From: Bdellovibrionota bacterium
GTDB lineage: Bacteria > Bdellovibrionota_C > UBA2361 > JBIKWN01
DNA length: 64,000 nucleotides
NCBI GenBank assembly: GCA_044356295.1
Contig: JBIKWN010000007.1
Coordinates: 10,627-74,626, forward strand
Direction of reading: 5' to 3'
The translations under genes were made by a program, and so were the position numbers. Positions 3,653-48,136 of this stretch are shown in pieces. How positions within the stretch are numbered: position 1 is the first letter of the stretch; each line of letters begins with the position of its first letter. The notes under the pieces are model-generated. The model was not told the DNA's origin. It did not search any database and was given only the letters and a program-made list of their open reading frames with translations.

Positions 3653-3809
3653 GGTCTCGTTTATAAAAAAAAACATTGAGCAACCTAATAGGTATCAATC
3701 TCAATCATGCAACTACTAAGTGAGCACTTCACCGGGTATATCTTCACTTGCATTCATCATAATACACTTATTACACTGCTCATTAAACAATAATAATCCA
3801 ATCTTCTTT

Positions 3810-5278: not shown

Positions 5279-5289
5279 AAGTAGCAACA

Positions 5290-7254
5290 CTATTGATTTG
5301 CTAACGCTACTATCCGGTTTACTGTTCCAGTTATCTCACCTGTAATACTTTGAGGGTAATAATCCTCTTGCATAACATCGACTCTATAAGCAGTCCCATA
5401 AGGAATAGTAAAGGTTACCAGTCCGGATCCATTAGACACGGCTGCCCCGTAAAGTGAACCATCTACAAAAACACTTACATAAGCACCAGACATCGCAGAG
5501 GCATTCATACGATCCACCACTTTAACTTCAAGCGTATATCCTGATTGATAGGCTCGAGCAGTCACTGTGGTGCTTTGATTGACCGTAACTTGATAAGAAT
5601 TAGATTCAAAGGTTAGTCCTGCTTTTGAAAAAGTAACTGTATAAATTCCACCTGAAAGTTGAGCAGTGTTCATTCTGCCCGTTGAATCAGTCATACCACT
5701 TGCTACGATAGCGTTTCCACTTTTAACTGTTACTGCGACTTGAGAGATTCCAGTACCACGTAAGGCATCAAGGACGATTAATGATAAAACACCAGGCTGG
5801 GGTATTGGAGTCATCGTTGGTGTCATTGTTGGGGTGGCTGTTGGTGTGCGAGTTGGAGTAGGAGTCGATGTTGGAGTTGCAGTTGGTACAACAGGAGCTG
5901 GAGGGGTCGGAGGATTCATTACAAGCTGCTGTAGGCCTCTTAACACATTAAGTTCTCCACCAGTAAGAGTTCTACCAACTAACGCACCATTATAGGAAGT
6001 ATTAGACAAAAGTGTCGATTTTAATTGCGATATTGTTAAGGCATTTGAATAAGCCTTAAATAATGCAAGCGCACCACTAACATGAGGCGCTGCCATGGAA
6101 GTTCCACTGATAGAGTTATATTGGTTGTTGATCCATGTACTAGAAATCCCAACACCAGGGGCACCCAAGTCTACAGTAGTAGCTCCATAGTTTGAAAAAC
6201 TAGCCAAAGCACCATTTGAATCAATTGCAGCTACAGAAACAATATTGTCAAGATTGTATGCAGCAGGATACTGAGGCGATGCATCAGAATTCATTCCGCT
6301 ATTACCTGCAGCAGCAACAAAAAGTAACCCAGCATTTCTAGACGCAGAAATCTCGTCATAGAGGACATTATAATATCCACCACCACCCCATGAGTTACTG
6401 GTAAGAACAATTGGTTCTCCGCGTTCTTTCAATCTTCGTACATACTGCAACGCTGTGACCGCATGAGCTAATGATCCAGAACCGGATGAACTTAAAAATT
6501 TCACTGGAATCATTTTTACATTCCAGCTGACTCCGACAACTCCTGTACCGTTATTTCCAACACCACCTATCGTTCCAGCACAGTGTGAACCGTGACCATT
6601 ATCATCCATTGGATTTCCGCTATTATTGATTGCGTTGTATCCGTATATGTCATCAACAACACCATTTGCATCATCATCTATACCATTACCAGCAATCTCT
6701 CTTGAATTTCTCCAAATGTTTGCAGCTAAATCTGGATGATTATAATTAACGCCTGTATCAATGACCGCAACAACAACTTGACTTGAACCAGTTGTATAGT
6801 CCCATGCAGCAGGCATACTCATACGTTGCATTCCCCATAGCAAAGAATAATAAGGGTCATTCGGTGTAGCAGAAGCTTGCAGAATCGCATTTGGATCGCA
6901 GTGACTTGCATAGTTTCTAAAGATTTTTAATTGACCCATCTGTCGAAGTTTTCGCTCATGCTTTCGAAGTTTGTCACAAGCGTTAACCATAGGAGCCCTG
7001 ATTCTTGAAGGCTTATCTTTCTGTTCAGGTGGACTAACGACCATAATCCCAATTCCAGGCAGCTGCTCGGTTATCGCTAATTGTTGATTCGTAGCATCTT
7101 CCATCATAGAAACAGCCTGCTCAGCCCTAAACTCATTTTTCACTGATACAATATATTGTCCAGTGTTGACTAATGATTGAGCCGAGGATTCCATAACAGG
7201 AATCAAACATCCTAAAGCAATAACGATCATTGATTTAACGAAATGTTTCATCAT
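5290..7254 (-). CDS. Secreted S8 subtilisin-like serine peptidase with Thr/Pro linker and C-terminal carboxypeptidase-regulatory-like beta domains
   Basis: Signal peptide; VIDTG, HGSHCAG, AAAGN, GTSMAAPHV; PTATPT linker. Confidence 0.93.
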   Translation of the reverse strand: MMKHFVKSMIVIALGCLIPVMESSAQSLVNTGQYIVSVKNEFRAEQAVSMMEDATNQQLAITEQLPGIGIMVVSPPEQKDKPSRIRAPMVNACDKLRKHERKLRQMGQLKIFRNYASHCDPNAILQASATPNDPYYSLLWGMQRMSMPAAWDYTTGSSQVVVAVIDTGVNYNHPDLAANIWRNSREIAGNGIDDDANGVVDDIYGYNAINNSGNPMDDNGHGSHCAGTIGGVGNNGTGVVGVSWNVKMIPVKFLSSSGSGSLAHAVTALQYVRRLKERGEPIVLTSNSWGGGGYYNVLYDEISASRNAGLLFVAAAGNSGMNSDASPQYPAAYNLDNIVSVAAIDSNGALASFSNYGATTVDLGAPGVGISSTWINNQYNSISGTSMAAPHVSGALALFKAYSNALTISQLKSTLLSNTSYNGALVGRTLTGGELNVLRGLQQLVMNPPTPPAPVVPTATPTSTPTPTRTPTATPTMTPTMTPIPQPGVLSLIVLDALRGTGISQVAVTVKSGNAIVASGMTDSTGRMNTAQLSGGIYTVTFSKAGLTFESNSYQVTVNQSTTVTARAYQSGYTLEVKVVDRMNASAMSGAYVSVFVDGSLYGAAVSNGSGLVTFTIPYGTAYRVDVMQEDYYPQSITGEITGTVNRIVALANQ

Positions 7255-21023: not shown

Positions 21024-21530
21024 CTATGCTCGCTTTAGGACGTTTCCAGCACGGCTTCCTGCCGGAGTTGTGCTTTCTTGAATGCTACCGCTGCGTGTGT
21101 AGTTTTTTGTAACATGCTGAGTAGCTGAATAGAGTATGGATAAAAGACCATCAACCATCGACATTCCAAATTTTGCGATACTACCAAGTTCACGAGTATC
21201 TTTTTGAGAAGTAGTAACACTTCTTTTTAATTTTTCAGCTATAATTGCAAAACGTTTCTTTTCTTCTCCCTGTAAACAATCAGCGATCAAAATTGTCAGC
21301 TTTGTCTTATTATCACCGAATATTTGCTGAATAAGGCTAAGACGTTCTGCCTGAAGTCGATTCATTTCATCAACAAACTGTTCTCGCCGAGAAGCAGCAT
21401 CTGTTACTTTAACGGCATCAAACGGAGCAATTACTTTTTTCTCTAGTTCCGTTAGAGCATTATACCCTTCATAGATTCGAATCTCTGCGAGTAATACTTT
21501 TTCTAATTGAGGAAGAAGAGCTCTATTCAT
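21024..21530 (-). CDS. flgN: Flagellar export chaperone FlgN
   Basis: Helical 168 aa protein directly downstream of flgM; C-terminal YTRSG motif. Confidence 0.75.
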   Translation of the reverse strand: MNRALLPQLEKVLLAEIRIYEGYNALTELEKKVIAPFDAVKVTDAASRREQFVDEMNRLQAERLSLIQQIFGDNKTKLTILIADCLQGEEKKRFAIIAEKLKRSVTTSQKDTRELGSIAKFGMSMVDGLLSILYSATQHVTKNYTRSGSIQESTTPAGSRAGNVLKRA

Positions 21531-21556
21531 AATTAAATATTATAAAATGAACAGAA

Positions 21557-21904
21557 TTAATTTTCTGCTTGTAATAATCCTCCGGAGGATAGGATTTCAG
21601 TTGAGATTTCATCAGCAAGTGCTTTGGCAATATCTTCCGATGATGGTCGATACGTTCCAGCAGCAAGTTGTTCTTTAATTTTATCAATCTTAGATTGACG
21701 TTCTGATAAAATTTGAAGTGGGCTAAATTCACCATTTAATGCAGTGGCAAGCTTTGAAACCTCGATTTTATCGTTTGAGTCTCCTTCGTTTTTGCCTGCT
21801 TTTTTGTCTTGAACAAGCTTGTTTTTAAGCTGTTCAATCTGTGTTTGACGGTCAAGTTGAACAATTTCCGCCTGTGATTCCAATGACTTAGGGTTTACTT
21901 TCAT
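21557..21904 (-). CDS. flgM: Anti-sigma28 factor FlgM
   Basis: DKIEVS and RQSKIDKIKEQLAAGTYRPSSEDIAKAL. Confidence 0.9.
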   Translation of the reverse strand: MKVNPKSLESQAEIVQLDRQTQIEQLKNKLVQDKKAGKNEGDSNDKIEVSKLATALNGEFSPLQILSERQSKIDKIKEQLAAGTYRPSSEDIAKALADEISTEILSSGGLLQAEN

Positions 21905-22012
21905 GGATTTCCTTTCCTTTTAAATGCTCGGGGGCCTTAACCTTGGCTCCCGAAAGTCACCTATACGCCTTATATAAGATGCACAGATGCTTATTTCCGA
22001 CTGTAATAATTT

Positions 22013-22351
22013 TTACTCGATTTTAAGCTCTTTTTTCTTAGCATTTTTCTCAAAATCCTTCATGAGGACATCTTTGACACCAATGCTCTGTTTCTCTGCA
22101 ATCTCTTTCGCGAGTGCTTCTGTGTACATATCTCTGTATTGCGCTTCCTCATTCGAACCACCAAGGAGCGAATCTTTAGGAACTGTTTTCCACATCTCAT
22201 TTAACATTTGGTGAAGCATAAGCGATTCAAAATCAGTCGCTGCTTTCTCTGCTTTTGCTTTTTCAGGATTTTTTGAAATCTTCTCAGCAGACTTTACTAG
22301 AGAGTCTGCACGAAGCCCTGAAATATCATTTAACGATTTAATGCCATCCAT
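22013..22351 (-). CDS. flgJ: Rod-binding protein FlgJ (no muramidase domain)
   Basis: AATDFESLMLHQMLNEMWKTV, YRDMY; follows flgI. Confidence 0.88.
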   Translation of the reverse strand: MDGIKSLNDISGLRADSLVKSAEKISKNPEKAKAEKAATDFESLMLHQMLNEMWKTVPKDSLLGGSNEEAQYRDMYTEALAKEIAEKQSIGVKDVLMKDFEKNAKKKELKIE

Positions 22352-22375
22352 GGCGTTTATCCTTTTACAATTTGA

Positions 22376-23494
22376 TTACATTATTACTAACTCAGCCTGA
22401 AGCGCTCCAGCTCTTTTGAGTGCAGCAAAGATTGAGATTAAATCCCGCGGTGTTGCACCCAACGAATTAAGTCCTTTTACAAGATCACCAAGTGTTACTT
22501 GACCACCAACAACTTGCAGACTTTTTACTTCTTCACCAATATTAACATCAGAATTTTGTACAACAGCGGTTTCACCTTGAGAAAGAGCACCAGGTTGCGA
22601 CACCTGTGTATCTGAACGGATTGCAATACTTAAATTTCCATGAGCAAGCGCAACTCTACTAACTCGGACGGCTTCTCCCATTATAATTGTTCCCGTTCGT
22701 TCATTAACTATAATTTTAGCGCCGACATCTGTTGGCACCTCTATGTTTTCTAGTCGCGAAACGAGTCCAATTGGATCTTTCATAAGTTCAGTTGAAAGAG
22801 GAACCTCAACAGCAGCACCATCAATAGCAACTGCAAGAGGACGACCCATAAAATTATTTATCTGACCAACCATGTTATTTACTGTAGTAAAATCAGGCTC
22901 TCTAAGAACTACACGTATTCTTTTAGCTTGAAAAAGATCAAAAGGAATAGATTTTTCTACATTTGCTCCACCTGTTATCACACCAACTGTTGGATGATTT
23001 TTTTGTGCGCTATCTCCTCCTCCGCCATCAACGGCAAATCCACCAACGCTTACTGGACCTTGCGCTACTGCGTAGGTTGAACCATCTGCAGCCTTTAAAG
23101 GAGACATTAATAATGTCCCACCTTGAATACTTTTTGCATCACCGAGTGAACTAAGTGTGACATCAATTTTACTTCCTGGACGAGCAAATGCCGGTAGCGT
23201 TGCGGTTAATAATACCGATGCGATATTTTTAACCTTAACATCTTTTGGATCCACTCTAATGCCAAGTCGCTCAAGCATGTTAGAGATTGATTTATTAGTA
23301 AAATCAATTTTTCCATCTCCTGTACCGTTAAGTCCTATAACGATTCCGTATCCAAAAAGTTGGTTACCTCGAACGCCTTCAATATCGGCGATATCTTTAA
23401 GGCGTGCAGCTTCTACATTTGTTGATAAGAAAACTGTTAACAAAAGTAAAAGGGTAAGTGTATTTTTTTTCATAACTGTATACATAGTTAGCAC
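22376..23494 (-). CDS. flgI: Flagellar P-ring protein
   Basis: ARLKDIA, NQLFGYGIVIGLNGTGD, GALQAEL. The start may be one of the downstream Met codons. Confidence 0.97.
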   Translation of the reverse strand: MLTMYTVMKKNTLTLLLLLTVFLSTNVEAARLKDIADIEGVRGNQLFGYGIVIGLNGTGDGKIDFTNKSISNMLERLGIRVDPKDVKVKNIASVLLTATLPAFARPGSKIDVTLSSLGDAKSIQGGTLLMSPLKAADGSTYAVAQGPVSVGGFAVDGGGGDSAQKNHPTVGVITGGANVEKSIPFDLFQAKRIRVVLREPDFTTVNNMVGQINNFMGRPLAVAIDGAAVEVPLSTELMKDPIGLVSRLENIEVPTDVGAKIIVNERTGTIIMGEAVRVSRVALAHGNLSIAIRSDTQVSQPGALSQGETAVVQNSDVNIGEEVKSLQVVGGQVTLGDLVKGLNSLGATPRDLISIFAALKRAGALQAELVIM

Positions 23495-23497
23495 TCC

Positions 23498-24454
23498 TTA
23501 AAATGGCCAAAGGGTTCGAATAAGGCGTGCACCCCACGGTGGTGTTTGTCCTTCATCGAGTGTTCCTTTCCCGAAGTAGTCAATTCTCATATTTGCAACT
23601 TTCGAAGAATCTACTTCGTTGGCGCTGTTTATATCTCGTACTCTTACTAAACCAGAAAGCATCATGACCTGCTCTTCATCATTTACAGCTACAATTTTCT
23701 TACCTTCAATTCTTAGAATTCCAGTAGGAAGAACTTCAGCAACCATTACAGATAAACGACCTCTCAATTGGTTCAATCTGTTTGTTATTCCTTGCCCTTT
23801 AAATTCATTACTACTTTTGGCAGTAATAAGAGCAGGATCTGCGATGTTACCTTCTTCTGGGCTTGTAACTTCAGAATTGAAAATTCCAGCAATTCCAAAA
23901 AGATTTTTCAAGGACGCTGAAAGTGTATTTTCAGATTTTGTATTGGTAAGTGCTTGCCGGATACCTTGGTCATTTTCAGTTACAGCAATCGTTATCAGGT
24001 CCCCTGCTTGCCATGCTCTGTCATCTCGTAATATATCATTCGTACCACGAGTTTCCCTCCAGAGTGATGCCTGTACTCCTGGATCGCCGAGGTCTAGTGG
24101 GCCTTGGTAATCTCGGGTCAAAGTCGTATTACCACGATAGATTGTAACTCCTTTAGCACCATCAATGGTTACATCAGAAGCAGCATTTGGATCGTTGGTT
24201 ACAACATCATTAACAAAATGATATTGTGCTTTTGCATCTGCTCCAACAGCAGAAGCTGCAACAGTTGACACTTTTGGGGGATACCCATAGGAATTGACCT
24301 GAGGAGGCACTCCTTTTGCCTGCTCAGTTTTAAAACTATTGGCATAGTCTTCTGATGGGATCACTGGAACGCGGGCATTATGCGTTGCACAACCAATCAG
24401 TGTACTCACACACAAAGGGGCGGTAATTTTTAAATAGCTTTTTTTATTTTTCAT
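23498..24454 (-). CDS. flgH: Flagellar L-ring lipoprotein
   Basis: Lipobox LIGC; DDRAWQAGDLITI; LSGLVRVRDI; terminal WPF. Confidence 0.93.
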   Translation of the reverse strand: MKNKKSYLKITAPLCVSTLIGCATHNARVPVIPSEDYANSFKTEQAKGVPPQVNSYGYPPKVSTVAASAVGADAKAQYHFVNDVVTNDPNAASDVTIDGAKGVTIYRGNTTLTRDYQGPLDLGDPGVQASLWRETRGTNDILRDDRAWQAGDLITIAVTENDQGIRQALTNTKSENTLSASLKNLFGIAGIFNSEVTSPEEGNIADPALITAKSSNEFKGQGITNRLNQLRGRLSVMVAEVLPTGILRIEGKKIVAVNDEEQVMMLSGLVRVRDINSANEVDSSKVANMRIDYFGKGTLDEGQTPPWGARLIRTLWPF

Positions 24455-25407
24455 TGAACCCTCACTATGCCTACTTCAATTATTTGACCACTGACTATCT
24501 TTTTAGATGCGTCATTACGTACTTTAATTTCTTGCCCTATACCGCCACTTTCAATAGCAACACCTGACGCTGTCGCTTCAAAGAACTGTCCTTGAAACTT
24601 CATTGTTACAGGCGACCCAGCAGCAATTGCCGTCGGAGGAGCGATTTTTTTTGCACGAAATACTTCTCCAGCTTGAATTTCGTTTTTAATTTCTTGACCA
24701 ATTACATCACTGGCTCCCTGTAGGGCATCGATCGGCAACGCTTCAATATTAAATCGAGCCATTTGAAGATCTCCTTCTGTGATCATTGTTCCGCGTGAAA
24801 GTGGTTTTTTTGCTACTGGAATCTCTCGAAACTCTTGAACCATCGTTGGGACTGAAAAGTTTTTATACGGAGTTCCATCTGGCTGCTGAATGGTGATTTG
24901 GAATGCGCGTTGTCCACCAGCCATCGCACTTGAAGAACTCACTAAAAGGGTAAAAGCACCAGTTGGTACAATCAGTGGCTGCTCATAACGAATGCTTTTT
25001 ACTTCAGTGGAAAGTTGATTTTGCTGAATATAGTTTTGTATGGCGTTACTAATCTCACCTTCTTGTAATGCTCTGCCAGCACGTTCAATTTTCATTACTC
25101 GAGGCAGGGTATATATCACTTCTTCAGTGTTTACTCCTTGTTCTTTGAGTTTAGAAATTATTTCTAGAGCTCCGATTGTTGTCGTATCACCTGGAGCTGG
25201 AGCATTCATTAAACGAATTTTTTTTAACCCTATAACAGCTTCATCATCTATACTTGAAGTACTTTGAATATCGCATAAATCAGAGAGCCTGACTTCATTC
25301 TGTGTTACCGTGATTGAAGATCTTCCAATAATTTTAATCCGTGACTCTGCGATTGCAGAATGTATCAGCAAGAAAAAACTACTCAGTAAAATGATACTAC
25401 GTCTCAT
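24451..25407 (-). CDS. flgA: P-ring assembly chaperone FlgA
   Basis: SAF domain (VAKKPLSRG), GVAIESGGIGQEIKVRN; lies between flgG and flgH. Confidence 0.9.
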   Translation of the reverse strand: MRRSIILLSSFFLLIHSAIAESRIKIIGRSSITVTQNEVRLSDLCDIQSTSSIDDEAVIGLKKIRLMNAPAPGDTTTIGALEIISKLKEQGVNTEEVIYTLPRVMKIERAGRALQEGEISNAIQNYIQQNQLSTEVKSIRYEQPLIVPTGAFTLLVSSSSAMAGGQRAFQITIQQPDGTPYKNFSVPTMVQEFREIPVAKKPLSRGTMITEGDLQMARFNIEALPIDALQGASDVIGQEIKNEIQAGEVFRAKKIAPPTAIAAGSPVTMKFQGQFFEATASGVAIESGGIGQEIKVRNDASKKIVSGQIIEVGIVRVQ

Positions 25408-25419
25408 TGACTACCTACC

Positions 25420-26208
25420 TTATCGTTTTAAATTAATAGCCTGGCTTAACATTTCATCAGCACTGTTCACCCCTTTTGAAGAAGCTTCATATGCTCGTTG
25501 TGCAGTAATCATATTGACTACTTGTTCAACGACGCTGACGTTACTACTTTCAAGAAATCCCTGAGAAACTCGACCAAATCCATTTTCGTTGAATATCCCT
25601 TGTAACGGAGTTCCAGAACTCTGTGTTTCTACATAGAGGTTCTGCCCAATTGATTTTAATCCTGCATTGTTAGGAAATCGTACTGCAGTAAACTGTCCTA
25701 GTACCTGAGGTGCTGCCTGCCCTGGGATTTTTACAGATACTTCACCGTTTTTTGCAATTATTATCTGTTGCGTTTCAGGTGGTACTGTAATGGCAGGATC
25801 AATGACAAACCCATCAGGATTCACAATTTGTCCTTGATCATTTAAACGAAAATTTCCAGAACGAGTAAATGCAATAGATCCATCAGGCATCTGTACTTGC
25901 ATAAAGCCATCCCCTTCAATCGCAACATCGAGAGGATTATTTGTTGAATTCATATCTCCTTGAGAGAATACCTTTCCAACCGAAACTGCTTTAACCCCTA
26001 ATCCCACTTGAAGCCCTGTTGGATTTCTAGTAACTGCGCTTGTTGCAGCACCAGGCTCTACAACTGTTTGATAAAAGAGATCTTGGAACGATGGTATCCC
26101 CTTTTTATAAGCAGTAGTGTTTACGTTCGCAAGGTTGTTCGAAATAACATCGATGTTAGTCTCTTGTGCTTGCATTCCTGTTGCTGATGTATAGAGTGCG
26201 CGAATCAT
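25420..26208 (-). CDS. flgG: Flagellar distal rod protein
   Basis: MIRALYTSATGM, SNNLANVNT, LESSNVSVVEQ, AQRAYE. Confidence 0.97.
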   Translation of the reverse strand: MIRALYTSATGMQAQETNIDVISNNLANVNTTAYKKGIPSFQDLFYQTVVEPGAATSAVTRNPTGLQVGLGVKAVSVGKVFSQGDMNSTNNPLDVAIEGDGFMQVQMPDGSIAFTRSGNFRLNDQGQIVNPDGFVIDPAITVPPETQQIIIAKNGEVSVKIPGQAAPQVLGQFTAVRFPNNAGLKSIGQNLYVETQSSGTPLQGIFNENGFGRVSQGFLESSNVSVVEQVVNMITAQRAYEASSKGVNSADEMLSQAINLKR

Positions 26209-26231
26209 AAAGTTACTCCTTTAAAAATCTA

Positions 26232-26993
26232 TTAACGTGAACGTCCTATTTGTGTAATTGCTGATTGATTGAGTTGATCGATGGTCTGAGCGGTTTTTGT
26301 GTACATTTCAAAACCACGGTTAGCAGTAATCATGTCAACCATGCTTGTAATTGCTGACACATTTGCCATTTCTAAAGCTCCAGACTCAAGCTCTGCATCA
26401 ACCTGCACAGGAGCTGCGGCACCAGGTGCTAACTTAAAACGATTCCCACCAGTTTGTTGAAGCGTTTGTAGGTCACTGACTTGAACAACTTGAATTGTAC
26501 CCAATAGAGTTGTACCTGAGGTTACGTCACCATTTCCTTGGATCTTAATTTGAGGACCATCGATTGAGATTGGGCCACCTCCTCCCAGCACTTGCATTCC
26601 ATCATGAGTTGAAAGGCTTCCATCGACACCAATGGTAAAATCACCTGCTCTTGAATACTGGGTCCCATCAGGGGTTTGAATAGCAAAAAAGTGATCTGGT
26701 TTCTTTAGTGCAACATCCATCGGATTACCAGTAGCTTTTACTGAACCTGGAGAAAAATCAGTCACAGCTCGAATATTTGTTGCACCTGGAGTTCGTTGAT
26801 GATCGCCCCGTGCATAGGGATCTACTTTTTCAAATGCTGCAGCAAACGTATCTTCGAATTTTTGTTGATCGGAAACGATAATCTGCTTTTTAAAGCCAGG
26901 TGTATTCACGTTAGCGAGGTTATTGTTTGTTACCTCAAGCTTTCGCATGTTTGTTAAACCACTTGATGCTGCTGCGTATAATCCTCTATCCAT
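26232..26993 (-). CDS. flgF: Flagellar proximal rod protein
   Basis: MDRGLYAAASS, NNLANVNTPGFK, LEMANV; precedes flgG. Confidence 0.92.
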   Translation of the reverse strand: MDRGLYAAASSGLTNMRKLEVTNNNLANVNTPGFKKQIIVSDQQKFEDTFAAAFEKVDPYARGDHQRTPGATNIRAVTDFSPGSVKATGNPMDVALKKPDHFFAIQTPDGTQYSRAGDFTIGVDGSLSTHDGMQVLGGGGPISIDGPQIKIQGNGDVTSGTTLLGTIQVVQVSDLQTLQQTGGNRFKLAPGAAAPVQVDAELESGALEMANVSAITSMVDMITANRGFEMYTKTAQTIDQLNQSAITQIGRSR

Positions 26994-27018
26994 AGAACCT
27001 TCCTTAGTTAATAATTTT

Positions 27019-40265: not shown

Positions 40266-40913
40266 ATGTCCAAAGAGAAGAAAATAACGGATTTACAGCT
40301 TATAAAGGCGTTTAACCAGGGTTCAACTGACGCATTTGAAGAGATTTTATCCAGGTATCAAGAAAAGGCTTTTAATCTTGCTATGCGGTTTGTAAAAAAC
40401 CAAGAAGATGCAGAAGAGGTGCTTCAAGATGTTTTTACAACACTGTACCGTAAACTGCATGCATTTGAAGGTAAATCTGCCTTCTCAAGTTGGCTTTACC
40501 GCATTGTTGTGAATGCTTCTTTTATGAAGCTTCGTAAAAAACGACAGACTCCAACATCACATTTAGAGGATCTTTCTCCAATTGTACAAGCAACAGTGCT
40601 TGAACGTGAAGAGATGATGCCTGAGAAAACAGATACATTCACAGTCGCACGTGAGATACGTGAGTCCCTACAGTTAGCTATTAGCAAATTACCAGATGAA
40701 TATCGTTCAGTGTTTGTTCTAAGAGACGTTGATGGTTTATCAAATCAAGAAGTAGGTGAAATTTTATCTCTAACCATTCCTGCAGTGAAATCAAGATTAC
40801 ACCGTTCACGTTTGATGCTTCGAAAGAAACTGATCCGTTTTTATGAGGAGTTTTATGGAACAAAGTATGTTCCAACGGACGATATGAACCTGGATAGCTT
40901 TGATGAACTATAA
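40266..40913 (+). CDS. ECF sigma-70 factor (RpoE/SigW-like)
   Basis: DAEEVLQDVF, FSSWLYRIVVN, LPDEYRSVFVLRD, VKSRLHRSR. Confidence 0.95.
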   Translation: MSKEKKITDLQLIKAFNQGSTDAFEEILSRYQEKAFNLAMRFVKNQEDAEEVLQDVFTTLYRKLHAFEGKSAFSSWLYRIVVNASFMKLRKKRQTPTSHLEDLSPIVQATVLEREEMMPEKTDTFTVAREIRESLQLAISKLPDEYRSVFVLRDVDGLSNQEVGEILSLTIPAVKSRLHRSRLMLRKKLIRFYEEFYGTKYVPTDDMNLDSFDEL

Positions 40914-41615: not shown

Positions 41616-41942
41616 TTATTCTTTGATTTTTAATACTTTTATAAGTTTATCTCTGATTTCAGCGTTATCAAGAATAATTTGGATAAATTGATTTTTTTCC
41701 TGGGCAGAAATCTGTGATTCCGAAGAGGTTTCTAGCAATACTCGATTAGCAATCTCCTCAACTGCTGCTTCAATGGAGACAAACTCTTGGTTAAGCATTG
41801 AATCAATATGGTCACTCCAAAACTTATCGAGATCCGACATATCTCGACTCGCTGTTGAATCAAAGGGCTTTGTTGTGAATTCAGTTTTACGAATCGGAGT
41901 AGATACTGAAGTGATTTTTTTTGTATTCTCTTTTTTATTCAT
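41616..41942 (-). CDS. Hypothetical protein, last gene of the T3SS-like operon
   Basis: 108 aa; overlaps the upstream TPR gene by 8 bp. Confidence 0.7.
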   Translation of the reverse strand: MNKKENTKKITSVSTPIRKTEFTTKPFDSTASRDMSDLDKFWSDHIDSMLNQEFVSIEAAVEEIANRVLLETSSESQISAQEKNQFIQIILDNAEIRDKLIKVLKIKE

Positions 41943-42489
41943 TTCTATACACGCTTACTTTACTTAAATTATGAAGAATTGATGGCTCAGGCTGCAAGAC
42001 AAGAGCTTCTTCTAAATATTGTTTCGCTCTTATTTTATTAAAGTTTCCACCTTTTTCATAAGAAAGAGCAGCAAGATTATTTCTTGCTGCTACATCGCTT
42101 GGATCAATCGCTGTGGCTTTTTGATATAGATGTTGCGCTACTTTCTTATTTCCTTGCTGGTCATAAAGATATGCATACCGATTTGCAAGTGGCTCATAAC
42201 TTGGAAACCATTCATTCAGCGAATCAAGAATACTTTTAGCCTGTGTATATTTTCCTGCACGCAGATACGTACAAGCAAGCCCATCATAACCTTCTGGTGT
42301 CGCTTGATGTTCTAACGCCATCTGAAAACTTGCTTCTGATAAAGAATATTGTCCAAGCTCAAGAAATGCGACACCTCTATCAATCAGTTGCTGTGTTTGG
42401 AAATCAGGAGTTTCTCGAACATAGGTCCCACAACCTAATAGTGCGCCCATTACTATGACCAGTATGCTATGCGGCAAGGAGCAATTCAT
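41935..42489 (-). CDS. TPR lipoprotein (pilotin PilF/TadD-like)
   Basis: Lipobox LLGC; TPR motifs (YQKATAIDPSDVAARNNLAAL). Confidence 0.75.
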   Translation of the reverse strand: MNCSLPHSILVIVMGALLGCGTYVRETPDFQTQQLIDRGVAFLELGQYSLSEASFQMALEHQATPEGYDGLACTYLRAGKYTQAKSILDSLNEWFPSYEPLANRYAYLYDQQGNKKVAQHLYQKATAIDPSDVAARNNLAALSYEKGGNFNKIRAKQYLEEALVLQPEPSILHNLSKVSVYRNE

Positions 42490-44329
42490 CTTCTACCTCC
42501 ACATCTTTTTTTTCTATTGATATTTTCGATACTACTTCTAAATTCAAATGAGGCATAACTTCCGTATGAGTCATTACTGGAATTATACACCCATAAGCTC
42601 GCAACCATTCTGAGATAGGCCTTCGAATTGATTTTGGTACAAGCAAGCAATCAATCGAAGGTGCAAGATGTTGCAATGAAGCTTTCAATGAAAGTATTAC
42701 TGAAACATCAATTACTCCATCAATCCATGGAAGCGATTCATAGCAATCATTTAAGAGAGCTACACGAAGAACATCATCAGGCATCTGAGTAGAACGCTTG
42801 CCTATAATTCCAGCACACAGATAGCGCTTCATATAACTTCTTAGTTCCTCGGATAATGGTTTATCGACTCCAGATCTGTCATGGAGTTCAGCGATGCCTT
42901 GTAAAACCACATCAAATGGGCGAAGCGATATTTCCTCTTGAGCTAGTGCACGAAGTACTTCAGTAAAGCGGGTAAGACTAACAATATGAGGCACCACCGT
43001 CGTTGCAAGCTCAGTCATTTGTGGCTCATGGAAATCCAATAACTTCCTCGCCGTAGTATCATCAATAAGCTCTGTTCTATTAGTAAGGCAAAAAACTGTG
43101 ATCATTTCTTGCAACAATTCTATTTGATCAACGGTTAAAAGTCTTTTTATTACAACAACACCTCTCACTTCAAGCACAACATAATCTTCTTGATGTACTT
43201 CTATTGGAACACTTGAAAGTAGTATTCCCGAGCTTTCAAAAACATTCTTTCGTGCATTTTCTATTTGTTGTTTTGCAGGCAAACCAATTAAAACTTTAGG
43301 CATTCGTATGAGCAATAGTGGCACTGCCTTAGGTTGAAATGGTAAAATGATAGTATCGTTCATTGCTGGAATTACTTCTTGAGATTTTACAAATTGCAAT
43401 AAGAAAAGTAGCCCTGCAGAGATAATAAGTGCAAGTTTAGGAAAACCAGGAATGCAAGCAATTCCTAACAGAATACATGCTCCTATTCGTAACATGATTT
43501 TCGATCGAACAACTTGATCAATTAATTCAATACTGAGACTTGCATTTTTACCCCCTGCTACTCGAGTTACAACTAATCCCGCTGCTAATGAATTAAGAAG
43601 CGAAGGAATTTGAGAAGCTATTCCATCACCGACAGTCAATACAGAGTAATGATGAATCGTATCAGCAAACGACATACCACTCATTATTCCAGTCAGAACG
43701 CCGCCTATGCCGTTAATGACAACGATACACATAGCAGCAATCGCATCACCTTTAACAAATTTCATAGCGCCATCGAGGGCACCGTAAAATCTGGATTCAA
43801 GTTGTAAATCTTGTCTTTTTTGACGAGCTGTTTGCATATCATACAAACCTGCTCGTACATCAGCATCAATCGCCATTTGCTTTCCAGGGAGCGCATCCAA
43901 AGTAAAACGTGCAGCAACTTCTGCAACTCGTTCACTCCCCTTTGCTACAACTATAAACTGTATCAATGAGAGCATAATAAAAATTATTATCCCTACTCCG
44001 ACGCTTCCTCCAAGAACAAAAGAACCAAACGACTCAATAACATTTCCTCCCACACCATAGGTGAGGATCATTCTTGTCGAAGTTACATTCAGACAAAGGC
44101 GAAATAAGGTACTGAGAAGTAAAATAGTAGGAAGCGATGAGAGCTGCAATGAATCCGTTAATTGCAGGGTTACTACAACTAATCCAATAGCTATAATAAA
44201 GTTCAGAACCAATAAAATATCTAATAAAAATACTGGTAGCGGCACCAAAAGTGAAGCCACTACCAGCATAATGATTGCGGGAAATATATATTCTCTAATC
44301 GATACAAACGACGAAGTCATTTTATCCAA
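42467..44329 (-). CDS. sctV: Type III export gate protein, FHIPEP family (SctV/FlhA)
   Basis: PTILLLSTLFRLCLNVTSTR, QFIVVAKGSERVAEVAARFTLDALPGKQMAIDAD, FYGALDGAMKFVKGDAIA, GDGIASQIP; cytoplasmic domain is divergent. Confidence 0.92.
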   Translation of the reverse strand: MDKMTSSFVSIREYIFPAIIMLVVASLLVPLPVFLLDILLVLNFIIAIGLVVVTLQLTDSLQLSSLPTILLLSTLFRLCLNVTSTRMILTYGVGGNVIESFGSFVLGGSVGVGIIIFIMLSLIQFIVVAKGSERVAEVAARFTLDALPGKQMAIDADVRAGLYDMQTARQKRQDLQLESRFYGALDGAMKFVKGDAIAAMCIVVINGIGGVLTGIMSGMSFADTIHHYSVLTVGDGIASQIPSLLNSLAAGLVVTRVAGGKNASLSIELIDQVVRSKIMLRIGACILLGIACIPGFPKLALIISAGLLFLLQFVKSQEVIPAMNDTIILPFQPKAVPLLLIRMPKVLIGLPAKQQIENARKNVFESSGILLSSVPIEVHQEDYVVLEVRGVVVIKRLLTVDQIELLQEMITVFCLTNRTELIDDTTARKLLDFHEPQMTELATTVVPHIVSLTRFTEVLRALAQEEISLRPFDVVLQGIAELHDRSGVDKPLSEELRSYMKRYLCAGIIGKRSTQMPDDVLRVALLNDCYESLPWIDGVIDVSVILSLKASLQHLAPSIDCLLVPKSIRRPISEWLRAYGCIIPVMTHTEVMPHLNLEVVSKISIEKKDVEVEDELLLAA

Positions 44330-44621
44330 CTCTAATATTTCTTACTGGTGCCATTTGAGCTTCATGTTTTGACTTCAAAACGTTCGATACCATCGACACT
44401 TCCATCATCTCCTTCTGCATTTGCATCTGCAGTCCAATCAAATTCGAATAATCCCCGGTTACACCAGTTGCTGCGGAGGAAGCAGCACCGGCAACTCCTC
44501 CTAAAAGTGATTTTGCAAACTCCATTGCTTGAGAGTAAGCAGTACTTACAGCTGGCTTAGGAGGAATTCTTTCCATCGGGTCAAACACTTGGGAAGGCTT
44601 TTCGAGCGAAACAGTAGTCAT
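44322..44621 (-). CDS. Small SctF/needle-like protein
   Basis: C-terminal LIGLQMQMQKEMMEVSMVSNVLKSKHEAQMAPVRNIR resembles the C-terminal helix of needle proteins; operon context. Confidence 0.5.
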   Translation of the reverse strand: MTTVSLEKPSQVFDPMERIPPKPAVSTAYSQAMEFAKSLLGGVAGAASSAATGVTGDYSNLIGLQMQMQKEMMEVSMVSNVLKSKHEAQMAPVRNIRVG

Positions 44622-45163
44622 ACATGATCCTTTAAAAAAATATTATCGAATATGGTTCGACAAGAATATTTTGAAAGTTTCTCAATTCGACCAACTATTT
44701 TTCCATTAATACAGGTAAACAACGCTCTGCCCAAAGGTAATCCATCTGCAAAAACATACGTTGTCATATTGTAAAAATTAGGAATTTTTAGATCTGTACC
44801 GCTTCCAATCCTTGAAAGATCTTCACAAGAAATCGTTTGTTGAAAAAGTGGCGCATGACAACGAATAGTTGGTACACGTGGTTCAATCACAAGAAGCGGA
44901 TCCAACTCAACGGTTGATAAAAGTAACGAATCGTTATCGACTAATCCCCGCAGAGAAAAAATACTACTCGATGTTTGTTCATACAATGTATGGACAAAAA
45001 ACTGCTCAAAAAGAAGACTTTGCTGAAGGGTTATGACTGCCGATAACTTTAGATGATTTTTAAACATCGAGTTCTCTGGAACAATATCTTGCTCATCTTG
45101 CTGCTCGCCATAAGTCAAAATATCAATCCAAGCAGAAGGAATTTCTTCAATTGAGTTACACAC
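44618..45163 (-). CDS. Degenerate SctQ/FliN-like (SpoA domain) protein
   Basis: C-terminal LSRIGSGTDLKI...VFADGLPLGRALFTCINGKIVGRIEKL fits the SpoA pattern. Confidence 0.55.
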   Translation of the reverse strand: MCNSIEEIPSAWIDILTYGEQQDEQDIVPENSMFKNHLKLSAVITLQQSLLFEQFFVHTLYEQTSSSIFSLRGLVDNDSLLLSTVELDPLLVIEPRVPTIRCHAPLFQQTISCEDLSRIGSGTDLKIPNFYNMTTYVFADGLPLGRALFTCINGKIVGRIEKLSKYSCRTIFDNIFLKDHV

Positions 45164-45893
45164 GAAGCCCCCTACTTCGACGAGAAACTACCATCATAAA
45201 AACGCCTATTATTGCGACAATTGCAGCTAAAAACGCATCCATCCCTCTAAAAATTCCCTTATCGCCAAATAATGTCTGATTAATTTTTTCAATGACTTTT
45301 TGATCAGTATGTATAGATTTTTGAACTGCTATATCTTCATTTTTAATAATTACTTCGATGGTATTTATTGTAATGCCGCTTGCTCCCGAGACGAGCTTCT
45401 TAATTTCATCTTGGGTTACTGCACATGTTCGTGCGCACTGCAGAACGACACTGGCAGAACTTTTAGTTGCGCCTTGTGAACCAGTAAATTCACTCATAAC
45501 AGTATGAGGATCCGACGAATTCAGAAAAAGACGAACATCGAGGACTCCTCCAAAACTTTTTAATGTATCCTCTATGTTTCTAATTAATGATCGCTCTTGA
45601 ATCCGGCGTTCTGATTCAGCCGAAGGGAATAAACTATCCCTTGAATCGTCACTACTACTTTTATCTGGAAGCAACCGATACTGAGATACTATTTTTCTTG
45701 CACTCATTTGATAGTCAGCTTCGACTAATAATCGAATTTGAGATGCTCCTTGTTGCTCTTGAGAAACAGGAATACCTGCATCTGATAATAGCAAAACGAT
45801 ACGATTGGCATCCTTGACGGTTACATCTCTGGCAAGTTCTTGACGACATCCAAGCAACGTCATCAATGAGATACATACTATGATTATTTTCAT
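45156..45893 (-). CDS. sctJ: Type III secretion inner-membrane ring lipoprotein (SctJ/YscJ/PrgK family)
   Basis: Lipobox LLGC; DANRIVLLLSDAGI; LFPSAESE; GVLDVRLFL; SASVVL; IKKLVSGASG; C-terminal TM helix plus basic tail. Confidence 0.85.
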   Translation of the reverse strand: MKIIIVCISLMTLLGCRQELARDVTVKDANRIVLLLSDAGIPVSQEQQGASQIRLLVEADYQMSARKIVSQYRLLPDKSSSDDSRDSLFPSAESERRIQERSLIRNIEDTLKSFGGVLDVRLFLNSSDPHTVMSEFTGSQGATKSSASVVLQCARTCAVTQDEIKKLVSGASGITINTIEVIIKNEDIAVQKSIHTDQKVIEKINQTLFGDKGIFRGMDAFLAAIVAIIGVFMMVVSRRSRGLRV

Positions 45894-46597
45894 ATATCTC
45901 CTGATTTCATTTTTTTTCTTAGCAGATCAGCAAGCTGATCGAGCGCACGACTATGAAGCCTACTTACCCACGATTTAGAAAGTTCGGGGCGAAGTTTGAT
46001 AATTTCTTGAAAACTAAGACCATCAAAGTAATGTTTCTCTACAATAAATCTTTCTTTTTCAGGTAAGCTCCTGACAACTTTCCTCATCTCTTCCGTTTTT
46101 TCAAGTTTAAGTATTGCTGCTTCTGCAGAAGGATACTGCTCGGCTTTTTGTTCGAGCAGATCTTCAGGGTTTGAACCGTGCATTCGAATTGCTAAAAATC
46201 CACGAGCTGTGAATGAAAATATTTTACTTAAAATTTCCCGATCACTGTTACTAGCTTCAGCAATCGAAGTAACTAAATCTTCCTCGACTACTTGAAGCGA
46301 ACGGACAGCTTTAAGAACATGATATGAGGTGCCTCGGACTTCTGAACTGCGGCGTATCAGATCCAGCACTGCCCCCCTGACTCTGCGATGGGCAAAACCC
46401 TCAAAAGACACCCCATGGGACTCATCAAACCGCTCAGAAGCCTCAATAAGCCCCATATAACCAGCTGAGAGATACTCATCTAGGTCTTCACGCTTTAAAC
46501 CAAACCTTTGGATCACTGCCAAAACCACCCTTTTAACGAATGGGTCATATTTTTCGATGAGCGTTTCTCTTGGATCAGACATTTGCACTGCAAGCAT
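45890..46597 (-). CDS. FliA/WhiG-family sigma factor heading the T3SS-like operon
   Basis: GYMGLIEASERFDESHGVSFEGFAHRRVRGAVLD (region 2); LPEKERFIV...LSKSWVSRLHSRAL (region 4). Confidence 0.88.
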   Translation of the reverse strand: MLAVQMSDPRETLIEKYDPFVKRVVLAVIQRFGLKREDLDEYLSAGYMGLIEASERFDESHGVSFEGFAHRRVRGAVLDLIRRSSEVRGTSYHVLKAVRSLQVVEEDLVTSIAEASNSDREILSKIFSFTARGFLAIRMHGSNPEDLLEQKAEQYPSAEAAILKLEKTEEMRKVVRSLPEKERFIVEKHYFDGLSFQEIIKLRPELSKSWVSRLHSRALDQLADLLRKKMKSGDI

Positions 46598-46789
46598 ACA
46601 AATAATTCGTAGTTAAGTTCTAAAAAGTTTCCTAAAAAATACCTAATATTTTCAAAAAGATATCTGGCTTTAGAAATTGAGCCTAAAAATAATTTGCATT
46701 ATGCCAACTTAATTTTGCTCCCAAATATACAGACACTGGCTTTTTCGAGCGAAACCTACTCTTACACCGCAGAAGTAAAAGGAAGTTTC

Positions 46790-48136
46790 ATGAAGTACAT
46801 ATCAAGGAAGGTTGTATTGGGAATTGGGTTAGCGCTCTTCTCTGCAACTGGACTCCTCCAAGCTGAAGAATGCAAAAAAGATAGCGTTGTCTTGCAACAT
46901 CTTCACCGCACAGCTAATCAACAAGAAGTCAAAGATCTGAATAAAATTGTTCATTTTTCACATCGCTCTGGTCGCGCATTGGTTGGTGAATTAGCAAGAC
47001 GTTCCAGTAACCACGGACAAGATGTTTCTTGTAATGAAGTTGAAAACGCTTGTCGTAAACTTGTTCGTGAATCTCGTAAAGGTGGATTTTCAAACTTTCG
47101 AAGAGCAAAAAGTTTTGCCTGCAGTGCTAACTATAAAGTGTATACAACGGGGAATAAAAAACGTTGGAAAAGTCCAATCAATGATCCTCTTGGCAAACAA
47201 CTACGATATGCCATTGATTCATTAAATCTTTCACGTGCATGGCAGATAACAAATGGTTCTGAAGACGTAGTAGTTGCAGTCATTGATACAGGAGTCGATT
47301 ATACTCACCCTGATTTAGCTCAAAATATTCTTCCTGGAAAAAACTTTGCGATTGGACTTTCAAGTGAAGATCCTCGGTCAAATGATCCAATGGATGATAA
47401 TGGTCATGGAACTCATGTTAGTGGAACGATTGCTGCAGTGGGGAATAATAGAATCGGTGTAGCCGGAGTTGCATGGAATACTAAAATACTTCCATTAAAA
47501 TTCTTAAATGAAAGTGGCTCAGGATATTTATCCGATGCAGTGCGTGCTATTAACTATATGGTTTATGCCAAACAAAATCTTGGTATGAATATAAAGGTTT
47601 CAAATAATTCATGGGGTGGCGGTAGTTTTAGCGATAGCCTCTATGCAGCAATTTCGATGGCAAATGATGCAGGTATTCTTTTTATTGCTGCAGCAGGAAA
47701 TGATGCAAATGACAATGATGAGTATCCATCCTATCCAGCAAGCTATAAATTACCGAATGTAACTAGTGTAGCAGCTTATGACGACACACTTTCATTGGCC
47801 TATTTCTCAAACTATGGAAAGAGAACAGTTGATATTGCAGCACCAGGATTAAGAATCGCGAGTGCTTATCCAGGTGGATATGCATTTCTTTCAGGAACTT
47901 CCATGGCAACTCCACATGTAAGTGGTGCCCTTGCATTACTCACATCTGCATATCCATCGTTAAGCGCACAGGAACTGAAAGCAAGATTAATTGAAACTGC
48001 ACGGTACAATTCTGAACTGAGAGGATATGTACGAGACGGCGCGCAACTCAACGTTCTCAATATGCTTCGTAACAGAACGTCTCAAAATTATGAGTCAGTT
48101 CGGCAATTAAAGTTAAAAGGAAAGCGCGGTGCTTAA
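46790..48136 (+). CDS. Secreted S8 subtilisin-like serine peptidase
   Basis: Signal peptide from ATG 46790; VIDTG, HGTHVSG, AAAGN, GTSMATPHV. Confidence 0.93.
   Translation: MKYISRKVVLGIGLALFSATGLLQAEECKKDSVVLQHLHRTANQQEVKDLNKIVHFSHRSGRALVGELARRSSNHGQDVSCNEVENACRKLVRESRKGGFSNFRRAKSFACSANYKVYTTGNKKRWKSPINDPLGKQLRYAIDSLNLSRAWQITNGSEDVVVAVIDTGVDYTHPDLAQNILPGKNFAIGLSSEDPRSNDPMDDNGHGTHVSGTIAAVGNNRIGVAGVAWNTKILPLKFLNESGSGYLSDAVRAINYMVYAKQNLGMNIKVSNNSWGGGSFSDSLYAAISMANDAGILFIAAAGNDANDNDEYPSYPASYKLPNVTSVAAYDDTLSLAYFSNYGKRTVDIAAPGLRIASAYPGGYAFLSGTSMATPHVSGALALLTSAYPSLSAQELKARLIETARYNSELRGYVRDGAQLNVLNMLRNRTSQNYESVRQLKLKGKRGA

Follow-up and report, generated by a model that had tools for sequence, protein, structure and literature searches.

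A seven-gene operon of an uncultured Bdellovibrionota bacterium is probably one of three dispersed loci for a secretin-less, type-III-secretion-like apparatus

A 64,000-nucleotide stretch of contig JBIKWN010000007.1 (C18) from the Bdellovibrionota bacterium assembly GCA_044356295.1 (genome G000), here called the window, carries an operon of seven minus-strand open reading frames (ORFs) that fill positions 46597-41616 and resemble type III secretion system (T3SS) components. Read in the direction of transcription, they encode a FliA-like sigma factor, an SctJ-like ring lipoprotein, a shrunken SctQ-like protein, a small protein termed p99, a short form of the export-gate protein SctV (SctV-short), a TPR lipoprotein, and a second small protein, p108 (Table 1). 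Our analysis of this operon, of the rest of the genome, and of the 124 species-level genomes that make up its GTDB phylum leads us to propose that it is probably one of three dispersed loci that jointly encode a conserved, secretin-less, non-flagellar apparatus, designated system B. The assembly comprises 2.96 Mb in 128 contigs and is 93.6% complete. G000 proteins are 35-70% identical to those of the nearest genome, a distance at which saturation of synonymous sites is to be expected. The names under which close homologues were deposited point to uncultured Bdellovibrionota/Oligoflexia. Identical pieces of the operon are present in contigs of two further, independent lake-water metagenome runs, which establishes the existence of this DNA elsewhere, not its expression.

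When the longest starts are used, successive genes overlap by 4, 8, 4, 8, 23, and 8 bp, although the overlap lengths vary with the choice of start, and one gene caller begins SctV 20 codons downstream. An earlier note on this DNA had described seven overlapping minus-strand genes, with overlaps of 4-23 bp and without sctR/S/T/U, sctN/L, sctD, or sctC; ORF calls and family searches bear out both the arrangement and these absences from the locus itself, and no space is left for additional genes between the seven ORFs.

Table 1. Genes and promoter-like sites of the operon, in window coordinates
Feature	Position	Strand	Basis or remark
Sigma-28-type promoter-like site GAAACTTT-N14-CGAA	46606..46631	-	8 bp 5' of the sigma gene; motif search
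FliA-like (sigma-28-like) sigma factor, divergent, 235 aa	45890..46597	-	Sigma70_r2 and r4
SctJ-like inner-membrane ring lipoprotein, 245 aa, C-terminal transmembrane helix	45156..45893	-	PF01514, TIGR02544
Shrunken SctQ/FliN-like (SpoA) protein, 181 aa	44618..45163	-	Position and weak profile alignment
Internal sigma-28-type promoter-like site 5' of the 99-aa gene	44656..44681	-	Motif search
p99, candidate needle/inner-rod (SctF/SctI-like) subunit, 99 aa	44322..44621	-	Conservation, model, Atlas lead
Short SctV (FHIPEP export-gate protein), 600-620 aa	42467..44329	-	Family search, tree
TPR lipoprotein, 184 aa, resembling PilW/PilF/TadD-type TPR lipoproteins	41935..42489	-	TPR families, lipobox
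Internal sigma-28-type promoter-like site 5' of the 108-aa gene	42023..42047	-	Motif search
p108, candidate for a sigma-binding (anti-sigma-like) protein and potential exported regulator, 108 aa	41616..41942	-	Complex model

The family assignments of the individual products differ in strength. The operon sigma factor matches the FliA/WhiG model TIGR02479 at 97-99 bits, under the cut-off of 189.6, with both Sigma70_r2 and r4 present, and the true FliA of the genome is encoded on contig C128 (248 bits). SctJ scores above the PF01514 cut-off (35.4 versus 24.4 bits) and under that of TIGR02544 (54.6 versus 162 bits), and its lipobox cysteine is kept in all 10 sequences compared, the window protein and nine orthologues. 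The lipobox cysteine of the TPR lipoprotein, which matches TIGR02521 (PilW) at 45 bits, under the cut-off, is likewise present in 10 of 10 sequences, none of which has Asp at position +2. The 181-amino-acid protein has no Pfam or NCBIfam match of its own; a SpoA motif is visible by eye and is aligned in a weak profile comparison (hhalign E 0.15). Because its positional orthologues in relatives, of 215-344 amino acids, carry a FliMN_C match in all seven cases tested, we place it at the SctQ position. The short form is common to the same-genus genome G002.

The genome holds three FHIPEP genes (C128, 865 bits; C100, 533 bits; and the window SctV), three FliP-family genes (C128, C71, and C94), and three YscJ/FliF-family genes (C67, C94, and the window), implying one flagellar set and two others. 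FlhB-family matches lie on C128 and C71, and two T3SS ATPases exceed the cut-off of 379.5 bits, one on C67 (590 bits) and one on C38 (389 bits). A T3SS secretin, SctC, was not found in the 93.6% complete genome, as the earlier note had said; the only two secretins lie in a pilM-N-O cluster and beside type II secretion system (T2SS) E/F and pseudopilin genes.

The C71 locus encodes, in order, an SctI-like protein of 98 amino acids, a coiled-coil protein of 239, SctR (165 bits), SctS (82 amino acids, found by reading an overlapped frame), SctT (32 bits), and an SctU N-terminal part of 252 amino acids (U_N). Further on come a 1074-amino-acid GAF/PAS histidine kinase, an 82-amino-acid FlhB/SctU C-terminal piece (U_C), and an FHA protein with a C-terminal transmembrane helix that is SctD-like. 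C71 has no J, Q, or V. These, with an F/I-like gene, are in the window, where R, S, T, U, N, and D are missing. On C38, the second ATPase gene (sctN) is preceded by an overlapping ORF for a 207-amino-acid SctL-like protein, and murJ precedes that ORF. As the gene sets are complementary and a promoter motif, described below, is shared, we assign the C71 RSTU genes to the window system, and system B denotes the window operon, the C71 operon, and the C38 pair together. The absence of an export core and ATPase that had been noted from the window sequence is therefore true of the locus only, with RSTU on C71 and the L-like and N genes on C38, and the operon is probably not a minimal stand-alone machine; an alternative suggestion, that the system is split across the genome, is favored by these complementary loci and the shared motif. 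A second, full non-flagellar locus exists in part, in that RSTU and an SctD-like gene are found on C71 and N on C38 and no secretin is found; the flhA-like and fliA-like genes of the operon are not the only ones in the genome, which has two other FHIPEP genes and a true FliA.

The SctU gene of C71 is split near the FlhB/SctU autocleavage site: U_N matches Bac_export_2 to about residue 256 and U_C matches residues 264-334. All on the minus strand of L015, U_N lies at 6469-7227, the kinase at 3309-6533, and U_C at 1059-1307, and the same layout is seen in L055, L056, and L155-L173. A GAF/PAS kinase of 871-1249 amino acids lies between the SctU halves in most relatives; in G000, the stretch from the kinase to U_C also contains mscL and a gene for glutamate dehydrogenase.

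The other non-flagellar set, system A, consists of a cluster on C94 and an SctV gene on C100. The C94 cluster comprises genes for two FHA proteins, a second SctJ, small ORFs, a 342-amino-acid SctQ, FliP- and FliQ-family proteins, membrane ORFs, and a TPR protein. The third FHIPEP/SctV, of 721 amino acids (C100; L017:10714-12879, minus strand), is encoded beside tadB/tadC-like (T2SSF), tadA-like (T2SSE), and ParA/TadZ-like genes. Summarized as sctD-D-J-Q-R-S-T-U_N-TPR plus an SctV in a Tad-pilus operon, system A has parts paralogous to those of system B (J, small ORF, Q, R, S, T, U_N, TPR, and FHA). The two systems nevertheless differ: system B has no Tad link, and it alone has U_C, the kinase, and I-like and F-like subunits, while the TPR protein is a lipoprotein in system B and lacks a signal peptide in system A (C94). 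A 261-264-amino-acid ORF that is weakly like the window sigma adjoins the TPR end of the system-A operon in three genomes (L174:11880 in G022, L183:5097 in G015, and L185:8590 in G033), so that, judging by this resemblance, system A may have a sigma-like neighbor as well.

A sigma-28-type promoter motif, GGAAACTTT-N13/14-CGA(T/A), is common to the three system-B loci and to no other gene set examined; it is found in G000 and in its relatives. The Escherichia coli sigma-28 consensus, TAAAGTTT-N11-GCCGATAA (AAAGTTT, 13 nucleotides, CGAT), has the same 13-nucleotide spacing. The window contains three GAAACTTT-N13/14-CGAW sites, before the sigma, p99, and p108 genes, all of them in the operon and on its strand, where 0.12 are expected and none of 100 shuffles reaches three. 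Counted within 150 bp upstream of ORFs, the exact motif occurs 17 times in relatives' loci, in every case before a sigma, sctJ, p99, p108-position, I-like, or L-like gene and never before another of the ORFs scanned. With up to one mismatch, it precedes 9 of 12 I-like (I98) genes, 5 of 7 L-like genes, 6 of 10 p99 genes, 4 of 11 sigma genes, 3 of 10 p108-position ORFs, and 1 of 9 sctJ genes. In the controls, it precedes 0 of 37 C94-type (system A) genes, 1 of 168 internal system-B genes, and 7 of 477 unrelated ORFs, three of these seven being I98-position ORFs that BLAST had missed; sigma-28-type promoters are thus a further difference between systems B and A. The 21 aligned exact sites also share features that lie outside the search, with G at position -1 in 20 of 21 and a spacer of 13 in 16 and of 14 in 5. 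G000 has 20 exact sites, of which 5, C38:7796 and C71:9803 among them, lie at the heads of the five units.

Neither a loose form of the motif, AAACTTT-N11-15-CGA[TA] (84 sites versus 68 in reversed sequence), nor the classical forms AAAGTTT-N13/14-CGAW (28 versus 27) and TAAA-N15-17-CCGATA (20 versus 21) is enriched genome-wide. Further GAAACTTT-N13/14-CGAW or looser sites were noted at C51:17616, C119:11750, C12:41674, C76:19351, C93:77155, and C22:19467, and before ORF6N genes at C38:58769, C128:93818, and C117:13385. The genes behind them encode pilin-like (N_methyl), ParA/TadZ-like, ComF-like, and ComM-like proteins, two proteins of unknown function, and three ORF6N proteins; they may be regulon members or chance matches.

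To see how widely the apparatus is conserved, SctV-short was surveyed in 60 sampled genomes and then in all 124 of the phylum at E<=1e-90. It is present in 103 of the 124 (within the order, 82 of 91 have it and, in the other orders, 21 of 33) and in 66 of 73 high-quality genomes, so the gene is not a relic absent from relatives, an outcome that the earlier note had allowed for. A full-length orthologue of about 600-650 amino acids was identified in 52 of the 60 sampled relatives, and in one more on inspection, at 36-45% identity (69% within the genus). Public data hold more than 120 SctV-short protein clusters at 38-68% identity, and those that bear a name are annotated as FlhA or EscV and all originate from uncultured bacteria. 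One Pseudobdellovibrionaceae genome has a single FHIPEP gene.

Gene order is conserved as well. The window-type order, read in nine relatives, is sigma, sctJ, a 59-75-amino-acid ORF, the 215-344-amino-acid ORF, p99, sctV, TPR, and an 89-111-amino-acid ORF; sigma orthologues head the operon in all nine, frames are intact, and this arrangement is preserved across 21 families. In 76 of the order's genomes, C71-type SctR reaches at least 236 bits; the C71-type order (I-like, X of 211-373 amino acids, R, S, T, U_N, kinase, U_C, FHA/transmembrane) is kept in 20 of 22 relatives' loci inspected. Two loci of family f3 are without the kinase, one of family f7 is rearranged, and a few loci end at contig edges. 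A C38-type ATPase of at least 255 bits is found in 45 of 60 relatives; in all seven loci inspected it is preceded by an L-like ORF of 157-251 amino acids, and in five of them a murJ-sized ORF comes before that.

SctV-short itself scores 444 bits with FHIPEP and better with the hrcV model (438 bits) than with the FlhA model TIGR01398 (391 bits), both under their cut-offs (772 for FlhA). Its nearest solved chains are YscV 7alw (304 bits) and SsaV (303), followed by FlhA (265). Members of the SctV-short clade have a strongly conserved membrane domain and lack about 45 residues of the cytoplasmic domain, equivalent to residues 455-500 of a Chlamydiales SctV, together with about 13 linker residues. 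We take the lost block to correspond approximately to subdomain 2 of FlhA/SctV, which is presumably used in chaperone docking.

Two FastTree phylogenies were generated, one of 112 sequences and 675 columns and one of 90 sequences and 618 columns that includes 28 Myxococcota sequences. Three duplicate loci and one truncated ORF were left out, and the second tree was further thinned by dropping two-thirds each of FlhA references and high-scoring Myxococcota loci. The named references came from a contig search with SctV-short, the matches of which are mostly generic FlhA via the peptide KQMAIDAD and are uninformative on synteny. In both trees, SctV-short is monophyletic (0.96-0.97), the Tad-linked SctV is monophyletic (1.0), and the two are sisters (1.0) that lie outside the flagellar FlhA clade (1.0). 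The second tree also separates both clades from the two canonical SctV references and 10 divergent Myxococcota proteins (0.905). In this tree, the 18 divergent, low-scoring FHIPEP proteins of Myxococcota do not cluster with SctV-short; deep branches are unstable, and the deep position of the joint SctV-short and Tad-SctV clade differs between the two trees.

A class of Myxococcota FHIPEP proteins (G061, G065, G066, G073, G116, G138, G163, G168, G188, and G203; L216-L225) has a gap in the Pfam match at about 405-450 like that of SctV-short. These ORFs are about 655-710 amino acids long, or longer where the call is over-extended, and in the tree they fall with the canonical SctV or apart, and never within the Bdellovibrio-like clades. 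Among the neighbors of divergent Myxococcota FHIPEP genes, BLAST found no similarity to system A or B proteins, and no T3SS genes were recognized.

As a FliA-like sigma factor heads the operon, p108 was tested as its partner. The p108 protein has no family match and belongs to a family that is weakly conserved at the same position in eight relatives; it is modeled as a basic disordered N terminus followed by four helices. Models of the sigma-p108 complex gave interface scores (ipSAE) of 0.85, 0.86, and 0.85, compared with 0.00 for the best of three controls, and at least 70% of contacts are common to the runs; the predicted local distance difference test score (pLDDT) of the partner is about 70 (at least 69). 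The predicted interface joins sigma residues 90-138, 163-171, and 220-230 to p108 residues 37-104. In calibration of the complex tool, which is only rough for our own alignments, 116 of 157 solved complexes passed the mark, as did 2 of 215 mismatched pairs. The modeling thus supports binding of p108 to the operon sigma and suggests that the pair forms a FlgM-like checkpoint without FlgM homology. By sequence, p108 is not FlgM: PF04316 missed it, hhalign gave a probability of 0.1% between the p108 family and the FlgM of the window, and searches against PDB profiles, Foldseek (E<=0.001), and Atlas returned nothing significant.

The other small protein, p99, has no Pfam family match; its C-terminal half is strongly conserved, and 11 columns are invariant among nine sequences. 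Its model has a disordered N terminus and a hairpin of helix, loop, and long helix, with a mean pLDDT of 63.5 and values of 82-86 in the last helix. The Atlas search gave one lead (0.87): in the only family-bearing neighbor cluster, 48% of members carry T3SS_needle_F. Against the PDB there was only a weak profile match, 7y6c_F (E 0.38), and Foldseek gave no match at E<=0.001. That p99 is a candidate needle- or rod-like subunit is therefore plausible but unproven.

Taken as one system, the three loci would between them provide the parts of an inner-membrane export apparatus. The window would supply the sigma-28-like regulator, the SctJ ring, a reduced SctQ, a needle- or rod-like subunit, the short SctV gate, the TPR lipoprotein, and the sigma-binding protein; C71 would add the SctI-like and coiled-coil proteins, SctR, SctS, SctT, the SctU split around a sensor kinase, and the FHA/transmembrane SctD-like protein; and C38 would contribute the SctL-like protein and the SctN ATPase. 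The five unit heads would be read from GGAAACTTT-N13/14-CGA[T/A]; the simplest reader would be the operon's own sigma, which would then also read its own operon. By analogy with the flagellum, p108 would hold this sigma as FlgM holds FliA, and export of p108 through the finished gate may free it. SctJ, the FHA/transmembrane protein, SctR/S/T/U, and SctV would form the export apparatus in the inner membrane, fed by SctQ, SctL, and SctN, and the I-like protein and p99 could build a short axial structure in the periplasm. The TPR lipoprotein is predicted to face the outer membrane, as Asp at +2 is missing in all 10 sequences, and may link the structure to that membrane or to a borrowed channel. 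Rod-like subunits and cargo would cross the inner membrane and then either stay in the periplasm or take a borrowed route through the outer membrane. Involvement in prey contact is guesswork, drawn from kinship with predatory lineages and from a precedent in Myxococcus.

Several observations weigh against this proposal. The motif was first noticed by eye, post hoc, in sigma upstream regions as AAACTTT-N-CGA(T/A); by itself it is weak in G000, where the 20 exact sites compare with 10 in a reversed-sequence control, and it also occurs before unrelated genes there. A true FliA over the family cut-off is present in five of five genomes tested, including those in which flagellar export genes were not found, so that FliA could also be the reader of the motif. 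Four FlgM-domain ORFs in the genome (C18, C4, C70, and C68) could be the real anti-sigmas, and the sigma-p108 score may reflect likeness to the sigma-28/FlgM complex, the structure of which, we believe, has been solved. For p99, neither the PDB nor Foldseek gave a significant match that would back a needle or rod identity. The three loci are never adjacent in about 30 relatives' loci inspected, and in G039 the window-type operon adjoins the R-S-T-U_N-TPR block of the other system. In genus g21, SctV-short and C71-type genes are kept, in G022 with the whole window-type operon, without a T3SS ATPase. Finally, co-occurrence of the system-B loci is uninformative within the order, where everything is near-universal. 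Co-occurrence of SctV-short and C71-type SctR outside the order was tried and set aside, since SctR scores of 188-239 bits run into FliP paralogues at 172-182 bits. An apparent joint loss of the two genes in G040 was also dropped, FliI being missing as well and FlhA and FliP kept in a genome that is 82% complete.

A more far-reaching joint reading, which we regard as possible but doubtful, is that system B is a T3SS derivative without a pore and under regulation of its own, in which the flagellar assembly checkpoint has arisen anew from unrelated components. Under this reading, the non-FlgM protein p108 would keep a private sigma-28-like factor sequestered until it is itself exported through the gate; SctU would be encoded pre-cut, with a cytoplasmic sensor kinase between the halves, so that an external or metabolic signal rather than hook or needle length sets export; and SctV would work without a chaperone-docking subdomain. 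If true, system B and its Tad-linked sister could be an early or separate T3SS branch, used by predatory-type bacteria against prey rather than eukaryotic hosts.

Against the assignment of C71 to the window operon stands the alternative that the operon works with the C94-type sctD-J-Q-R-S-T-U_N set, or that the two sets swap parts freely, such that C71 is not a specific partner. The G039 arrangement, in which the C94-type block is divergent from the window-type operon, is in keeping with this, as are the sister relationship of the two SctV types and the single non-flagellar ATPase gene for two systems. However, the C94-type operon has its own contiguous J and Q in the five other genomes inspected, and its V lies in the Tad operon; in addition, the motif is missing before all C94-type genes scored, and the C71 set would be left without J, Q, and V. 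We consider this alternative unlikely.

Genus g21 (G022 and G033; 97% and 94% complete) bears on a second alternative. These two genomes keep genes of both non-flagellar systems, yet searches for a T3SS-type ATPase found none whatsoever, implying that the ATPase is dispensable or that function differs there, and suggesting that both non-flagellar systems in g21 operate ATPase-independently. G022, the only g21 genome in which the window-type operon was inspected, lacks the SctQ-like gene, and the system-A SctQ is kept in both genomes; this joint loss of SctN and SctQ, in one lineage only, fits SctN working with the SctQ of system B. The same losses, together with a shrunken SctQ in the window genus, an SctV without its cytoplasmic block, the missing secretin, and family scores that are all under equivalog cut-offs, could describe a decaying or repurposed remnant with a non-export role, for instance a sigma/anti-sigma regulatory module only. 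Yet the intact frames, the gene order kept across 21 families, the strongly conserved SctV membrane domain and p99 C terminus, and the identical sequence in two further lake-water runs make such a remnant a distinctly unlikely explanation.

Four genomes (G020, G022, G033, and G042, with completeness of 92, 97, 94, and 91%) keep the SctV-short gene, and flagellar-type FlhA, FliP, and FliI were not found in them. Each has two FHIPEP and two FliP-family genes, the second FHIPEP falling in the Tad-SctV clade in G020, G022, and G033. A C71-type SctR match is present in all four, and the C71-type operon itself was read in each. Around SctV-short, a recognizable sigma-SctJ operon is found in G020 and G022; in G042, no sigma or sctJ was recognized upstream of p99. 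The idea, also raised in the earlier note, of a stand-alone minimal machine in which SctJ, SctQ, and SctV borrow flagellar FliPQR, FlhB, and FliI can draw on the absence of R/S/T/U/N from the locus, the complete flagellar export set of G000, a flg cluster about 15 kb away, and the sigma-28-like sigma and promoter, but it is very unlikely given that SctV-short is kept in these four genomes and that the motif is also found at a non-flagellar RSTU operon and an L/N pair that complement the window genes. FliA scores 245-251 bits in G020, G042, G022, and G033, and sigma-28 may serve something other than flagella there.

If the three loci do form one system, the closest described parallel is the needleless T3SS* of Myxococcus xanthus (mxan_2434-2464; the "Myxo" group of Abby and Rocha 2012), which lacks secretin, needle, and translocon according to the published accounts (PMC12075869, PMC3459982). 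Co-occurrence of Kil and T3SS* is apparently restricted to Cystobacterineae, as stated in a 2025 review (PMC12428579). Abby and Rocha (2012) take sctC, J, N, Q, R, S, T, U, and V to be the core genes of non-flagellar T3SS and do not mention "Bdellovibrio." The Myxococcus system and system B are both non-flagellar, T3SS-like, and found in relatives of predators, and no secretin, tip, or translocon genes were found in either; Myxococcus T3SS* forms one large cluster there, in contrast to the three loci of system B. The private sigma and its partner protein, the kinase-split SctU, the short SctV, and the candidate rod- and needle-like subunits are particular to system B. The divergent Myxococcota FHIPEP proteins of our tree may include members of T3SS*.

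Comparison with the flagellar FliA-FlgM circuit shows likeness in three respects: a FliA-family sigma encoded with a T3SS gate, a promoter of sigma-28 layout, and a small, partly disordered protein modeled on the sigma. It differs in that p108 has no FlgM homology, the sigma is under the FliA cut-off, and no flagellar structural genes are involved. In Chlamydia, we understand, the T3SS is scattered and an orphan short flhA lies beside a sigma-28 gene (CT060/CT061). Scattered T3SS loci and a short FHIPEP paralogue beside a sigma-28-type gene are thus points of likeness; however, the chlamydial-type models match weakly (PRK05910, 258 bits against a cut-off of 670; PRK05911, 54 against 378), Chlamydiae have secretin, needle, and translocon, and the sole Chlamydiales SctV in the tree is not close to SctV-short.

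No published paper centered on T3SS in Bdellovibrionota/Oligoflexia was found, judged by title and the start of the abstract, although subscription journals and supplements could hold surveys. System B is undescribed in print as far as we found, and it is a variant of a secretin-less T3SS conserved across the lineage. Secretin-less T3SS-like machines, for which Myxococcus T3SS* is the one experimental case, are central to ideas on the origin of the injectisome from the flagellum, and here an entire lineage of uncultured lake bacteria, with 124 species-level genomes that depositors label Bdellovibrionota or Oligoflexia, has two machines of this type. System B offers a defined candidate regulon, with a sigma factor, a candidate non-FlgM anti-sigma, a recognizable promoter, and a kinase-split SctU. 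Detection of secretion systems by single loci under-calls scattered systems of this kind.

Other genes lie near the operon in the window. A flagellar cluster on the minus strand, about 15 kb away at 21024-27000, includes flgF, flgG, flgA, flgH, flgI, and genes for a short FlgJ-like rod-binding protein and FlgM; the ORF at the usual flgN position (21024-21530) has no family match and adjoins the FlgM gene (21557-21904). A subtilisin/mycosin-like serine protease gene (46694-48136, plus strand) is divergent from the promoter region of the operon, with an orthologue seen only in the same-genus genome. An extracytoplasmic function sigma factor is encoded on the other side of the operon (40266-40913, plus strand), and five of the first seven relatives inspected have a counterpart at 52-92% identity no more than a few kb from the operon.

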